Shown one piece after another: positions 1 to 43,359 of a stretch of DNA of 43,359 nt. The notes beneath the pieces were generated by a model that saw only the letters and a list, made by a program, of their open reading frames with translations, was not told the origin of the DNA and ran no database searches. Numbering within the stretch: position 1 is the first letter of the stretch; every line of letters starts with the position of its first letter. Both the position numbers and the translations under genes were made by a program. Source of the DNA: a virus (lineage: Duplodnaviria > Heunggongvirae > Uroviricota > Caudoviricetes); the IMG/VR virus record IMGVR_UViG_2541047745_000011, positions 1 through 43,359 of that record; one strand, 5' to 3'.

Positions 1-1158
1 ATGCTCACCGTTAAGCAGATTGAAGCAGCAAAGCCGAAAGAAAAACCATACCGCCTACTCGATGGTAATGGCCTGTACCTTTATGTCCCTGTGTCAGGGA
101 AAAAGGTATGGCAGCTTCGCTACAAGATTGACGGTAAGGAGAAAATCCTGACCGTAGGAAAATATCCGCTAATGACTTTGCAGGAGGCAAGAGATAAAGC
201 ATGGACCGCGAGGAAAGACATCTCGGTTGGCATCGATCCGGTAAAAGCGAAAAAGGCTTCGTCTAACAACAATTCCTTTAGTGCCATTTACAAGGAATGG
301 TACGAGCACAAGAAGCAAGTCTGGTCAGTAGGCTATGCAACTGAACTTGCCAAAATGTTTGATGACGACATTTTACCCATCATCGGCGGTCTTGAGATTC
401 AGGATATTGAGCCGATGCAACTGCTGGAAGTAATCCGCAGATTTGAAGATCGCGGTGCAATGGAGCGAGCCAACAAAGCCCGCAGAAGATGCGGCGAGGT
501 TTTCCGTTACGCTATTGTCACCGGCAGGGCTAAATATAACCCGGCACCTGACCTTGCTGACGCCATGAAGGGGTACCGCAAGAAGAACTTCCCGTTTCTT
601 CCTGCAGACCAGATCCCGGCATTCAATAAAGCACTGGCAACATTTTCAGGAAGTATCGTATCGCTCATTGCCACCAAGGTTTTACGCTACACTGCCCTAA
701 GAACGAAAGAGCTTCGTTCCATGCTATGGAAGAACGTCGATTTTGAAAACAGAATTATCACCATCGACGCCAATGTGATGAAGGGACGCAAAATTCATGT
801 GGTCCCGATGTCAGACCAGGTGGTTGAACTTCTCACTACGCTAAGCTCAATCACCAAACCAGTATCAGAGTTTGTTTTTGCCGGGCGCAACGATAAGAAG
901 AAGTCAATCTGCGAGAACGCGGTACTGCTTGTGATCAAACAAATCGGCTATGAAGGTCTGGAAAGCGGTCACGGATTCAGGCATGAATTCAGCACGATTA
1001 TGAACGAGCACGAATGGCCTGCTGACGCTATTGAAGTGCAACTGGCACATGCCAACGGCGGATCTGTGCGAGGGATTTACAACCATGCTCAGTATCTCGA
1101 TAAGCGCAGAGAAATGATGCAGTGGTGGGCGGACTGGCTTGATGAAAAGGTGGAGTGA
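1..1158 (+). CDS. int: Tyrosine integrase, P4-like family
   Basis: 385-aa ORF; N-terminus MLTVKQIEAAKPKEKPYRLLDGNGLYLYV is typical of P4-type integrases; C-terminal catalytic region with HGFRH motif. ATG at window position 1. Confidence 0.85.
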   Translation: MLTVKQIEAAKPKEKPYRLLDGNGLYLYVPVSGKKVWQLRYKIDGKEKILTVGKYPLMTLQEARDKAWTARKDISVGIDPVKAKKASSNNNSFSAIYKEWYEHKKQVWSVGYATELAKMFDDDILPIIGGLEIQDIEPMQLLEVIRRFEDRGAMERANKARRRCGEVFRYAIVTGRAKYNPAPDLADAMKGYRKKNFPFLPADQIPAFNKALATFSGSIVSLIATKVLRYTALRTKELRSMLWKNVDFENRIITIDANVMKGRKIHVVPMSDQVVELLTTLSSITKPVSEFVFAGRNDKKKSICENAVLLVIKQIGYEGLESGHGFRHEFSTIMNEHEWPADAIEVQLAHANGGSVRGIYNHAQYLDKRREMMQWWADWLDEKVE

Positions 1159-40040: not shown

Positions 40041-40976
40041 ATGACAACTTTCACCGACAAAGAACTGATTAAAGAAATCAAAGAGCGCATAGGCAGCCTG
40101 GACGTTCGAGACAATATTGAGCGCCGTGCTTATGAAATTGCACTGGCATCACTGGAAGCAAAACCAATAGGTGCATTCCACATTGCAGAACAGCAAGTTG
40201 ACGGCACAAGTGACTACCTCAAGGATGGAGAATGGCCTATTGATAATGGGATTATTGAAGTATACGCCGCCCCTCCAATGCCAGTAGTACCTGAAGAAAA
40301 ACCAATGCCCAACCCTCTTAAAATGTACGCGGTCGATGCTGTTGCCGCTATTGCAGAGGTGAGAGGCTGGAATGCCTGCCGCGCCGCCATGCTTCAGGGT
40401 GTCGAACCTGCAAGTAATCATGAAGAGTTGTCAGAGGAGAACGGATCATCGCTTCAATTGCGCAATTTAATCCGGCAGCGCCATGCTGAATGGTCAGATA
40501 AGACGTTTGGCTGTGTTGGTCCAGTTGGCCCGCTGAAACATCTCTCAAAAGAGGCACTGGAAGCCGCAGCCGAACCAGACGATCTTAGCGAGTGGGCTGA
40601 TATGCAGTTTCTGTTGTGGGATGCACAGCGCCGTGCTGGCATCAGCGATGCTGAAATTACCGCTGCTATGGAAGATAAATTGAAGATCAACATGGAGCGC
40701 CAGTGGCCTGAGCCAAAAGATGGTGAGCCTCGCTTGCACATTAAAGAACCCGGCAACTCTCCGGTAACTCCGGATGGTTGGATAAGCTGTAGTGATCGAA
40801 TGCCGGATACCAAAACAGCCGTTCTTGTTGCCGTGGAGTTTGACAGGAAAGGTGACTGGCGAATGAAATGGGCGACTTACATCCCGGGTCATCCTGACGC
40901 TAATGATGGGTGGATAATTCCTGGTGCGTCGTGGAAACCGTCACACTGGATGCCGCTACCAGAGCCTCCACTTTGA
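40041..40976 (+). CDS. DUF550/DUF551-type prophage protein (putative MazG-like nucleotide pyrophosphohydrolase domain)
   Basis: 311 aa; segment RQRHAEWSDKTFG...EWADMQFLLWDAQRRAGISDAEI resembles DUF550. Confidence 0.5.
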   Translation: MTTFTDKELIKEIKERIGSLDVRDNIERRAYEIALASLEAKPIGAFHIAEQQVDGTSDYLKDGEWPIDNGIIEVYAAPPMPVVPEEKPMPNPLKMYAVDAVAAIAEVRGWNACRAAMLQGVEPASNHEELSEENGSSLQLRNLIRQRHAEWSDKTFGCVGPVGPLKHLSKEALEAAAEPDDLSEWADMQFLLWDAQRRAGISDAEITAAMEDKLKINMERQWPEPKDGEPRLHIKEPGNSPVTPDGWISCSDRMPDTKTAVLVAVEFDRKGDWRMKWATYIPGHPDANDGWIIPGASWKPSHWMPLPEPPL

Positions 40977-41072
40977 AAGCGAAGCTTATACATATCTTTT
41001 ACATCAGCAATCTATTGTTAATCTCCAATCAATGTTACGTTGTCATCTCACTCATGCTTTGGAGGTAGTGAT

Positions 41073-41252
41073 ATGTCTTGTCCAAAATGCGGTTCTGGAA
41101 ATATTGCAAAAGAAAAAACAATGCGTGGATGGTCTGATGATTATGTGTGCTGCGATTGCGGATACAACTACTCTAAAGACGCATTTGGAGAGCGTGGTAA
41201 AAACGAGTTTGTCAAAATTAATAAAGAACGCGAAGGCAACGAAAAAAGCTAA
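41073..41252 (+). CDS. Small zinc-ribbon protein
   Basis: 59 aa, CPKCGSG...CCDCG; GGAGGT RBS. Confidence 0.45.
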   Translation: MSCPKCGSGNIAKEKTMRGWSDDYVCCDCGYNYSKDAFGERGKNEFVKINKEREGNEKS

Positions 41253-41317
41253 TTTATTTATTCATATATGAAAACAATGTAACCAATATTCGAATTGAAG
41301 AACTGAAAGAACACCAA

Positions 41318-41339
41318 GCCGCCTGATGGCGGTTTTTTA
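41318..41339 (+). terminator. Rho-independent terminator at the end of the PL operon
   Basis: GCCGCC-tgat-GGCGG followed by TTTTTTATT. Confidence 0.7.
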
Positions 41340-41348
41340 TTGCCTGAT

Positions 41349-41364
41349 TTGCAGGTTCGATTCC
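41349..41364 (+). other. tRNA T-arm-like fragment TTGCAGGTTCGATTCC (5' part of a tRNA 3' half)
   Basis: 16-nt match to a canonical tRNA T-stem/loop, consistent with tRNA-Arg argW from memory; no 5' tRNA body upstream. Confidence 0.5.
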
Positions 41365-41383
41365 CTATTCGGAGATAGCACTC

Positions 41384-41584
41384 ATGCAACACGAACTACA
41401 ACCTGATTCACTGGTTGATTTGAAATTCATCATGGCCGATACTGGCTTCGGTAAAACCTTCATCTACGACCGGATTAAGTCCGGCGACCTGCCAAAAGCC
41501 AAAGTTATCCACGGGCGAGCAAGATGGTTATATCGTGACCATTGTGAATTCAAAAATAAGCTCTTAAGCCGCGCCAATGGGTAA
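41384..41584 (+). CDS. alpA: AlpA-family excisionase-like regulator
   Basis: 66 aa, LVDLKFIMADTGFGKTFIYDRIKSGDLPKAKVIHGRARWLYRDHCEF, typical AlpA/Xis HTH; GGAGATA RBS. Confidence 0.8.
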   Translation: MQHELQPDSLVDLKFIMADTGFGKTFIYDRIKSGDLPKAKVIHGRARWLYRDHCEFKNKLLSRANG

Positions 41585-41657
41585 AATAGCGGGTAAAATA
41601 TTTTTCACATCTAAAAAACACCATTCCAATCAATCCCCTGCCGCGTCAAGTAGATGT

Positions 41658-41672
41658 CTGCAGGGGACACCA
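41658..41672 (+). other. tRNA 3'-terminal fragment CTGCAGGGGACACCA, candidate attR core
   Basis: Sequence of a tRNA acceptor 3' strand plus ACCA, consistent with argW 3' end from memory; flanked by GGGTAAAATA direct repeats at 41579-41600 on the phage side. Confidence 0.55.
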
Positions 41673-42111
41673 GATACCCTTCAAACGATATCTACCTTCA
41701 CCCCGTAAAAGATAAGTTTGGCAGCACATTTGCCCTATCTACTCATTTTTCCTGCAACAGGTTGAAATCTCAACACGGTCAGAAAACGCTGATGACTAAA
41801 CAGCCCTGGGCTGGGCGATGTAACCATCACACACAATCCTGATCGCGAAATATGGCGTGACTTGATACTTCACTCCACAATGCTTTCCTTGATGAATTCG
41901 CAGGCCCGTGATACACGGGACAGGTCGCTGAATTACGACAATGCCCTGGAAATCAGCGAGCCGTGTATCCGGAGTACATTTGAGCGACTGTACCAGAACA
42001 TGAATGAGGCGTTTGGATTAGGCGATTATTAGCAGGGCTAAGCATTTTGGTATTATTATTTTCCGGTTGAGGGATATAGAGCTATCGACAACAACCGGAA
42101 AAAGTTTACGT

Positions 42112-43359
42112 TTATATTGCTGAAGGTACTGGCGTTTCCATCACTATTTGCTCACGTTTTTTACTCAGGAAGAAAATGCCAAATAGCAACATCAGGCAGA
42201 CAATACCCGAAATTGCGAAAAAAACCGTCTGGTAGCCTGCGTGGTCAAAGAGTATCCCAGTCGGCGTTGAAAGCAGCACAATCCCCAACGAACTGGCAAT
42301 TTGAAAACCAATCAGAAAGATCGTCGACGACAGGCGCTTATCAAAATTTGCCACGCTGTATTTGAAGACGGATATGACACAAAGTGGAACCTCAATGGCA
42401 TGTAACAGCTTCACTAATGAAATAATCCAGGGGTTAACGAATAGCGCGCAGGAAAGGATACGCAACGCCATAATCACAACACCGATAAGTAATGCATTTT
42501 TTGGCCCTACCCGATTCACAAAGAAAGGAATAATCGCCATGCACAGCGCTTCGAGTACCACCTGGAATGAGTTGAGATAACCATACAGGCGCGTTCCTAC
42601 ATCGTGGGATTCGAATAAACCTGCATAAAAGACAGGAAAGAGTTGTTGATCAAAAATGTTATAGAAAGACCACGTCCCCACAATAAATATGACGAAAACC
42701 CAGAAGTTTCGATCCTTGAAAACTGCGATAAAATCCTCTTTTTTTACCCCTCCCACATCCGCCGCTACGCACTGGTGTTCCTGCTCTTTAAAACGCATGT
42801 TGATCATCATAAATACAGCGCCAAATAGAGAGACCAACCAGAAGTTGATATGGGGACTGATACTAAAAAATATGCCAGCAAAGAATGCGCCAATAGCATA
42901 GCCAAAAGATCCCCAGGCGCGCGCTGTTCCATATTCGAAATGAAAATTTCGCGCCATTTTTTCGGTGAAGCTGTCAAGCAAACCGCATCCCGCCAGATAC
43001 CCCAGACCAAAAAAGAGCGCCCCCAGAATTAAACCTACAGAAAAATTGCTTTGCAGTAACGGTTCATAAACGTAAATCATAAACGGTCCGGTCAAGACCA
43101 AGATGAAACTCATACACCAGATGAGCGGTTTCTTCAGACCGAGTTTATCCTGAACGATGCCGTAGAACATCATAAATAGAATGCTGGTAAACTGGTTGAC
43201 CGAATAAAGTGTACCTAATTCCGTCCCTGTCAACCCTAGATGTCCTTTCAGCCAAATAGCGTATAATGACCACCACAGCGACCAGGAAATAAAAAAGAGA
43301 AATGAGTAACTGGATGCAAAACGATAGTACGCATTTCTGAATGGAATATTCAGTGCCAT
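42112..43359 (-). CDS. cscB: Sucrose:H+ symporter CscB (LacY-family MFS permease), host chromosomal gene
   Basis: 415 aa, MALNIPFRNAYYRFASSYSFLFFISWSLWWSLYAIWLKG..., 12 predicted TM helices; ATG at window end. Confidence 0.8.
   Translation of the reverse strand: MALNIPFRNAYYRFASSYSFLFFISWSLWWSLYAIWLKGHLGLTGTELGTLYSVNQFTSILFMMFYGIVQDKLGLKKPLIWCMSFILVLTGPFMIYVYEPLLQSNFSVGLILGALFFGLGYLAGCGLLDSFTEKMARNFHFEYGTARAWGSFGYAIGAFFAGIFFSISPHINFWLVSLFGAVFMMINMRFKEQEHQCVAADVGGVKKEDFIAVFKDRNFWVFVIFIVGTWSFYNIFDQQLFPVFYAGLFESHDVGTRLYGYLNSFQVVLEALCMAIIPFFVNRVGPKNALLIGVVIMALRILSCALFVNPWIISLVKLLHAIEVPLCVISVFKYSVANFDKRLSSTIFLIGFQIASSLGIVLLSTPTGILFDHAGYQTVFFAISGIVCLMLLFGIFFLSKKREQIVMETPVPSAI

Follow-up and report, generated by a model that had tools for sequence, protein, structure and literature searches.

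A conserved argW-identical segment upstream of torI at the attR junction of an HK620/Sf6-like prophage

Introduction

The site-specific recombination system used by phages that integrate at the tRNA gene argW is already known and has been dissected experimentally in the Escherichia coli K-12 prophage KplE1 (CPS-53) and in phage HK620. Excision that depends on the integrase IntS, the recombination directionality factor (RDF) TorI and integration host factor (IHF) has been shown in vitro and in vivo for KplE1 and HK620 substrates (PMC2951348, PMC3509656). TorI is a repressor of the intS promoter PintS and, in the published view, IntS is constantly present at a low level and control of excision acts through the RDF (PMC2951348). 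It is thought that excision in this phage family is governed by the timing of TorI synthesis. In this study we examine the argW module of a stretch of viral DNA of 43,359 nucleotides (IMG/VR record IMGVR_UViG_2541047745_000011, positions 1 to 43,359; hereafter the window, meaning the whole stretch). The module is a further instance of the known system, located beside the csc sucrose locus, and its torI control region has, as its most conserved non-coding sequence, a copy of the tRNA arm next to the crossover site.

KplE1 resembles the window in its core, TorI, arm-type repeats and IHF-like site. It has the same order at argW (attL-intS ... torI-attR), with the integrase and RDF genes on opposite sides of attP, and it includes the argW-identical segment described below (PMC2951348, PMC3509656). 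It differs in being a defective 10-kb remnant in which torI has yfdT upstream and dsdC downstream, whereas the window holds a full-length P22-like prophage with intS at its left end and torI, the excision factor gene, at its right end. In the circular form of the phage, attP lies between torI and intS. In the record of HK620 (NC_002730), annotations mark the core and the repeats of attP, hkaC (TorI) and int. Like phage lambda, the module uses IHF and a bivalent integrase, with sites of the arm and core types, and in both an RDF directs excision. In lambda, however, xis and int are adjacent and co-transcribed and the Xis sites lie in the P arm, whereas here attP is placed between the two genes, the P' arm (attL) carries the published RDF sites, and the RDF gene has a copy of the bacterial arm upstream of it.

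The features on which the argument rests are as follows.

1-1158, plus strand: intS, tyrosine integrase of the argW module (99.3% DNA identity to annotated intS genes)
41349-41364, plus strand: piece 1, TTGCAGGTTCGATTCC, a phage-borne copy of part of argW (exact match to argW)
41384-41584, plus strand: torI, recombination directionality factor (excisionase) of 66 amino acids (66/66 residues aligned to PDB 1Z4H)
41579-41588 and 41591-41600, plus strand: two predicted arm-type sites, GGGTAAAATA twice, overlapping the torI stop codon
41653-41672, plus strand: crossover core region, with the argW-identical block CTGCAGGGGACACCA (piece 2) at 41658-41672

An earlier note on this DNA, made from the letters alone, had located pieces 1 and 2 correctly and had read them as the 3' half of a tRNA, consistent with argW, split around an alpA gene at the right end of a prophage. 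It had argued that a simple attR should be contiguous and had suggested either a composite attP or tandem or remnant elements at one tRNA.

The attR junction at argW

The locus is very probably the attR junction of an HK620/Sf6-like (P22-family) prophage at argW, with a recombination module of the KplE1/CPS-53 type; this confidence applies to the module and the junction and does not extend to the mechanism of piece 1. In BLAST comparisons the free phage HK620 aligned to positions 41000-41672 of the window with 98.5% identity, Sf6 (NC_005344) and many relatives aligned to 41279-41672, and unoccupied argW loci aligned to 41658-42100. KplE1 of K-12 has everything from ~41334 to 41672 in common with the window in nearly identical DNA. 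Past 41672 the window continues as the host flank of the empty argW site, collinear with unoccupied loci, the comparison that the earlier note had proposed. At matching positions, the records of HK620 and Sf6 carry annotations for TorI, IntS and both the core and the repeats of attP. The placement of the site at a prophage right end was correct, with HK620 homology running to 41672 and host homology starting at 41658.

Because HK620 homology stops at 41672 and empty-site homology starts at 41658, strand exchange by IntS is predicted to take place within 41658-41672, and piece 2 by itself is the predicted crossover core. Piece 2 (CTGCAGGGGACACCA) is exact at these positions and has the phage and host homology breakpoints at its two ends. 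The premise of a non-contiguous attR is therefore not borne out, as the crossover block consists of the second piece only. For annotation purposes this is an ordinary argW attR, and nothing points to a second element. The published KplE1 core is 16 nt, CTGCAGGGGACACCAT (PMC2951348), and the window has the same core except for the last base. The host argW has a G after CCA, so that the identity block is 15 nt in the window instead of 16. The empty argW locus used for comparison (L006, 1441-1515) reads ggctaaTTGCAGGTTCGATTCCTGCAGGGGACACCA followed by gataccc, and is also given as GGCTAATTGCAGGTTCGATTCCTGCAGGGGACACCA followed by GATACCCTTCAAACG. The core would be built as GATGTC / TGCAGGG / GACACC, with a 7-bp spacer between the halves of an imperfect inverted repeat. 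On the phage side, the sequence flanking the core resembles a T-loop in most relatives and reads TTCGATGTA-TGCAGGGG.

The two genes of the module were identified with their relatives. The intS product has the Pfam domains Arm-DNA-bind_3, Phage_int_M and Phage_integrase and is 98.7-99.5% identical in protein sequence to the integrases of Sf6 and CUS-3. The window starts at the intS ATG, with attL and argW just outside; in a prophage with a 99.3% identical intS (L121), attL consists of the intact argW, then the P' arm with its TorI pentamers and PintS, then intS. The only open reading frame (ORF) within the 293-nt gap between the pieces (41365-41657) is 41384-41584. It matches PDB 1Z4H, "Tor inhibition protein", with E=7e-43 over all 66 residues, its product is 100% identical to HkaC of HK620 and gp18 of Sf6, and matching RefSeq entries carry the TorI annotation. 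The gap reported earlier is therefore real, and the gene in it is torI, of the AlpA/Xis-like excisionase group, rather than alpA itself.

The direct repeats that follow torI had been proposed as integrase arm sites, and this is supported. The two copies of GGGTAAAATA are annotated as attP repeats in the HK620 record, TAAA is the motif common to IntS arm sites (PMC2951348), and GGGTAAA is kept twice in all nine lineages of the alignment described below. They are, as predicted from these comparisons, IntS arm-type sites.

Two tandem elements at argW, namely a large prophage ending at piece 1 and then a small torI remnant with its own attR, would also place two tRNA fragments near one another. 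Tandem arrays are common at tRNA genes, and in a Hafnia locus (L112) a P4-like integrase gene lies directly after an argW-type attR core. In such arrays there is likewise more than one tRNA-derived fragment near the end of an element, but each is a full copy of the crossover block that bounds a separate element; in the window a single phage has both fragments, and these are neighbouring but distinct parts of the tRNA. The free packaged genomes of HK620, Sf6 and others have piece 1, torI, the core and int contiguous, and KplE1 has the same order of piece, torI and core. No extra integrase or junction lies between the pieces, and torI is the cognate RDF of the left-end intS (PMC2951348, PMC3509656). 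The reading as tandem or remnant elements is refuted by these free-phage genomes and can be given only a minimal probability.

A copy of the argW T-arm upstream of torI

Alignment to the argW gene of the empty locus (L006) confirmed that the fragments derive from this tRNA gene. Pieces 1 and 2 are exact, adjoining segments of argW that have one C in common and are 293 nt apart. Piece 1 comprises the 5' T-stem and the T-loop, with 2 nt of the variable loop before them and 2 nt of the 3' T-stem after them; in attB this part of argW directly adjoins the crossover core on its 5' side. The conserved centre of piece 1 is AGGTTCGATTCC (41353-41364), with GTTCG at 41355-41359. The piece is placed between an upstream terminator and the ribosome-binding site of torI.

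Several trivial accounts of piece 1 were considered. A hidden tRNA or tRNA-like gene is ruled out, as ARAGORN found no complete tRNA in the window and Rfam gave no tRNA match in 41200-41500 at E<=10. The contiguous 30-mer that would result from joining both pieces was not found in the window even with 3 mismatches, and the tRNA-derived sequence at the locus amounts to 16 + 15 nt only. A chance match is also ruled out: the piece is 16 nt of the targeted tRNA, adjacent to the core in tRNA coordinates and no more than 300 bp away from it, for which the expectation is ~1e-7 (~600 positions / 4^16). Shuffled sequences gave 0.05-0.06 matches per window at <=2 mismatches. A near-copy of piece 1, TTGCAGGTTCGACACC (14/16), is found at 40398-40413 on the minus strand within a 311-amino-acid ORF (40041-40976) and is probably due to chance, with ~0.05 matches of this kind expected per window. 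Additionally, the Rfam model of the enterobacterial small RNA (sRNA) STnc130 matched 41307-41434 on the minus strand over its full length, antisense to the terminator, piece 1 and the start of torI. The match scored 24 bits against a gathering score of 55 and rests mostly on the terminator hairpin, and a known sRNA at piece 1 was rejected.

Piece 1 belongs to the phage. It is identical, and at an equal distance from torI, in HK620, Sf6 and KplE1 of K-12, where the upstream genes differ, and it is exact in 52 of the 53 E. coli-type loci with a gap to the core that is always 293-294 nt. Piece 1, torI, the core and int are contiguous in the free phages HK620 and Sf6. It lies inside the phage and is neither a crossover site nor the leftover of a second element; sequence comparison places it as an old part of the recombination module. 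Descent from argW, and not convergence, is indicated by the argW-specific bases TTGC.. and by the T-loop variant GATT.

In the HK620 record the segment containing piece 1 is labelled as a cII-dependent "phage integration" promoter and in the Sf6 record as pI, and neither record annotates its identity to argW. The tRNA identity is also not mentioned in PMC2951348 and PMC3509656. It has apparently gone unremarked, and a prior description in the primary HK620, Sf6 and KplE1 intasome papers, which lie outside the scope of this comparison, is possible; this weighs on the reading of piece 1 proposed below. The putative cII-binding site of the HK620 record, TTGCCTGATTTGC (TTGC-N5-TTGC, 41340-41352), covers the first 4 nt of piece 1. 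As an account of piece 1 it was rejected, since the overlap is limited to these 4 nt and the motif is not conserved in diverged modules where the 12-mer is kept.

Piece 1 is dispensable for excisive recombination, because the attR substrate used in vitro starts downstream of it and because several functional relatives do not have it. This substrate is 135 bp and begins at primer CTCTTAAGCCGCGCCAATGG, which corresponds to position 41561 of the window (PMC3509656), and excision in vitro reaches ~80% conversion (PMC2951348).

Distribution and conservation of piece 1

Diverged modules were gathered from other Enterobacterales and from phage genomes. The piece is present upstream of the RDF gene in Enterobacter (L011), L012, Serratia (L013), Citrobacter (L014), a Pantoea species (L016), P. 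stewartii (L020), Edwardsiella (L019, L021) and Hafnia (L112), as well as in the Erwinia phages Midgardsormr38 (L123) and phiEt88 (L125). It is absent from Klebsiella, Cronobacter, Dryocola, Tatumella, Arsenophonus, several other Pantoea, Salmonella phage Emek and Erwinia phage EhrS_49. The RDF gene overlaps an upstream gene or trails it closely in Klebsiella, Emek and EhrS_49, which links the piece to stand-alone expression of torI. Two of the loci (L012 and L029) come from metagenome-assembled genomes labelled Actinomycetes and Parachlamydiaceae; they carry an enterobacterial-type torI/attR with TorI 85-92% identical, and binning contamination is likely. A scan of viral contigs returned only TorI loci of 100% identity.

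Conservation was assessed as mean pairwise identity in an alignment of nine lineages that have the piece and whose TorI proteins are 70-100% identical.

AGGTTCGATTCC (41353-41364): 0.95
25 nt upstream of piece 1: 0.31
6-nt spacer after piece 1: 0.43
torI third codon positions: 0.56
P arm: 0.64
crossover core: 0.85

The randomised flanks, together with a tandem duplication in Midgardsormr38 and the depth at which the piece is retained, argue for strong purifying selection on the 12-mer centre of piece 1. In Midgardsormr38 two tandem T-arm-like copies, CAGGTTCGATTCCCGT and CAGGTTCGATTCCCAC, lie directly upstream of the excisionase gene (L123, ~1745-1790), and the pentamer GTTCG occurs five times in its P' arm, as in E. 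coli. Phage phiEt88 has an RDF that is 39% identical and an Int that is 74% identical, and keeps an argW-type core. It has AGGTTCGATTCCC upstream of the RDF gene, its arm sites differ (GCGGGCATAA), and its P' arm contains no GTTCG pentamers. Since phiEt88 keeps the piece and an argW-type core despite its diverged RDF, the piece seems to follow the tRNA target, that is, the core specificity of the integrase, rather than the specificity of the RDF. No module aimed at another tRNA was found; all TorI relatives that were found have an argW-type core, and the next integrase relatives are <=38% identical with other gene layouts.

These data bear on the possibility that piece 1 is a functionless relic, for example of an ancestral attP with ~30 nt of argW into which, or beside whose T-loop copy, a torI/P-arm cassette was inserted. 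In tRNA coordinates the pieces are direct neighbours, in most relatives the core has a T-loop-like phage side, which places the RDF cassette between two T-loop-like direct repeats, and piece 1 is dispensable in vitro and absent from many lineages. A neutral 12-mer would not be expected at 95% identity with flanks at 31% and synonymous sites at 56%, however, and a tandem duplication is unexpected for a relic without function. We consider a functionless relic rather improbable. Only the absence of function is disfavoured, as a relic origin is compatible with a present function.

As for that origin, the direct repeats that flank the RDF cassette, GGTTCGATTCC and TTCGATGTA-TGCAGGGG, are compatible with an ancient event in which a longer tRNA-derived attP received an insertion or recombined. 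The suggestion of a composite attP may be right in this remote evolutionary sense; it holds weakly, in that the P-arm side has a second conserved argW-derived segment, and fails in that this segment is not a crossover site. Simple schemes of tandem lysogens followed by deletion would need extra steps to arrive at the observed order. The arrangement bears on how tRNA-specific attP sites and their excision genes are assembled.

Possible roles of piece 1

We infer that piece 1 is a regulatory site for the stand-alone expression of torI that mimics the tRNA (B) side of attB/attL. The bacterial half-site that matches the core is GATTCC, which is the 3' end of piece 1, and the piece therefore would reproduce the tRNA side of attB/attL as the integrase sees it. 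Binding by the core-binding domain of IntS is our tentative first choice among the mechanisms, followed by a TorI operator, with an RNA element and a functionless relic ranked equally after these. A full pseudo-core beside piece 1 (GATTCC-N7-GAGATA) was considered and ruled out, as the spacing to GGAG varies between 5 and 14 nt among lineages.

It is possible, though doubtful, that IntS binding would extend to a regulatory loop. IntS is bivalent; its core-binding domain could occupy piece 1 at the 5' end of torI while the arm sites hold it at the other (3') end of the gene. Such a bridge would enclose torI in a loop of ~225 bp, silencing the excision gene in the lysogen until it is overridden by the lytic programme. 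This model would agree with the published picture of a constant low level of IntS and of excision control by way of the RDF. If true, it would describe a new coupling of integrase occupancy to RDF expression and would identify the torI control region, where the main excision control step proposed by the Ansaldi group would act. In either case, the 12-bp sequence is a precise target for work on RDF control.

Several points weigh against a regulatory site bound by IntS. Isolated core-type half-sites are bound weakly by lambda-type integrases. About half of the diverged lineages examined do not have piece 1, functional phages among them, and any role must therefore be accessory. The nine lineages in the alignment were picked for a recognisable piece, an ascertainment bias for which the randomised flanks of that alignment compensate only in part. 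The phiEt88 RDF is TorI-like in its first 16 codons, and the phiEt88 piece may have travelled with this 5' RDF segment in a mosaic joint. Finally, the torI promoter, PtorI, has been termed "non-characterized" (PMC2951348).

A TorI operator is a further possibility, in which TorI would regulate its own gene by recognising GTTCG in the T-loop copy together with another pentamer that follows 12 nt downstream. Repression of PintS by TorI is proven, and the TorI sites on attL are defined by the pentamers GTTCG, GATCG and GTCCG (PMC2951348). In the window, GTTCG at 41355-41359 of piece 1 is followed by ATTCG at 41367-41371, and diverged modules have GTTCG-N7-GTTCG (L011, L020), GTTCG-N7-GTCCG (L019, L021) or GTTCG-N7-GTACG (L112). 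There are six pentamers on one strand of attL, with spacings of 31, 20, 43, 10 and 10 nt, and the first of these is the T-loop of argW itself, which shares the strand of the five published sites and precedes the nearest of them by 31 bp. However, the argW T-loop is outside the five TorI sites reported on attL (PMC2951348), the second pentamer is missing in L012 and L014, and a single pentamer occurs by chance about once per 600 nt per strand in the window (70 in 43 kb). A 5-nt motif also leaves the 12-nt invariant block unexplained, and phiEt88 keeps the 12-mer with an RDF that is 39% identical and a P' arm without GTTCG. A TorI operator is accordingly judged unlikely, though it ranks second.

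Piece 1 could instead act in RNA, as an element of the torI mRNA leader in which a T-arm-like hairpin or an anti-Shine-Dalgarno pairing (UUCC:GGAG) tunes translation or stability. The piece is 5-14 nt upstream of the Shine-Dalgarno sequence in every lineage that has it, and the only consensus helix returned by RNAalifold is UUCC:GGAG. Full hairpins with changed but pairing stems are found in Edwardsiella (GACAGG/CCTGTC), phiEt88 (GCTAGG/CCCAGC) and L011 (TAGG/TCTA), and the mean stem pairing is 4.3/6 compared to 2.9 for random 3' strands, a statistic inflated by the 2 of the 6 counted pairs that fall inside the conserved 12-mer. The energy of the consensus UUCC:GGAG helix is only -0.8 kcal/mol, with no compensatory pair, and the E. 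coli torI leader folds no better than shuffled sequences (z = -1.4). The stem is lost in E. coli, L012, L014 and Midgardsormr38, where the 12-mer is intact, and the model assumes that the transcript covers the segment of piece 1. We regard an RNA element as improbable, to the same degree as the functionless relic, and retain the B-side mimic bound by IntS as the preferred, tentative reading.

Other elements of the module

The remaining features between the upstream genes and the core are listed here.

41316-41339, plus strand: intrinsic terminator after an eag-like gene (terminator scan), at the end of a mosaic block common to P22, HK629 and others
41340-41352, plus strand: putative cII-binding site of the "phage integration" promoter in the HK620 record
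41371-41374, plus strand: Shine-Dalgarno sequence GGAG of torI, kept in all lineages 5-14 nt after the 12-mer
41628-41640, plus strand: putative IHF site AATCAATCCCCTG, within the conserved block ATCAA.CCCCTG of the nine-lineage alignment

The homology to P22, Sf101 and HK629 found by BLAST is limited to the eag gene and the terminator and ends at ~41343-41352; the P22/HK629 homology ends at TTTTTTATTG (~41343). In HK629, which has a lambda int, a canonical cII site of the form TTGC-N6-TTGC (L004, 1541-1554) occupies the position of the HK620-type TTGC-N5-TTGC. Since these motifs directly follow the shared eag terminator, the mosaic joint of the early-left genes with differing integration modules lies within ~10 nt of the putative cII site.

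No canonical sigma-70 promoter for torI was found in 41000-41800, and the promoter-like hexamers seen by eye inside the 12-mer are poor matches. The IHF consensus is WATCAANNNNTTR, to which AATCAATCCCCTG is close, and attR reportedly has a single functional IHF site; we propose 41628-41640 as this site. A 43-amino-acid ORF at 41577-41708 on the plus strand (hkaB in HK620, gene 17 in Sf6) spans the crossover core as well as the arm sites. In the prophage, host sequence makes up the 3' part of this ORF; it gave no Pfam match and is probably not a gene.

The host flank

41673-42111, strand not assigned: host flank from argW to cscB, collinear with unoccupied sites

The prophage is located in the argW-csc arrangement and not in the argW-dsdC arrangement of K-12. 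The gene cscB, encoding a sucrose/oligosaccharide permease of the MFS family, runs on the minus strand from 42112 to 43359, the end of the window; in one empty-site genome cscB is annotated as a pseudogene with an internal stop. A 56-amino-acid ORF fragment at 41862-42029 on the plus strand matches Pfam DUF4942 (E=6e-6). Because this fragment is annotated in unoccupied argW loci as well, it appears to be the relic of an older island beside argW that predates the prophage. In another genus, the Hafnia locus (L112, 2700-4134) is a genuine tandem array at argW, in which a P4-type integrase gene, itself followed by a gene with a Phage_P4_cII domain, starts ~170 nt past the argW-type attR core of the TorI prophage.

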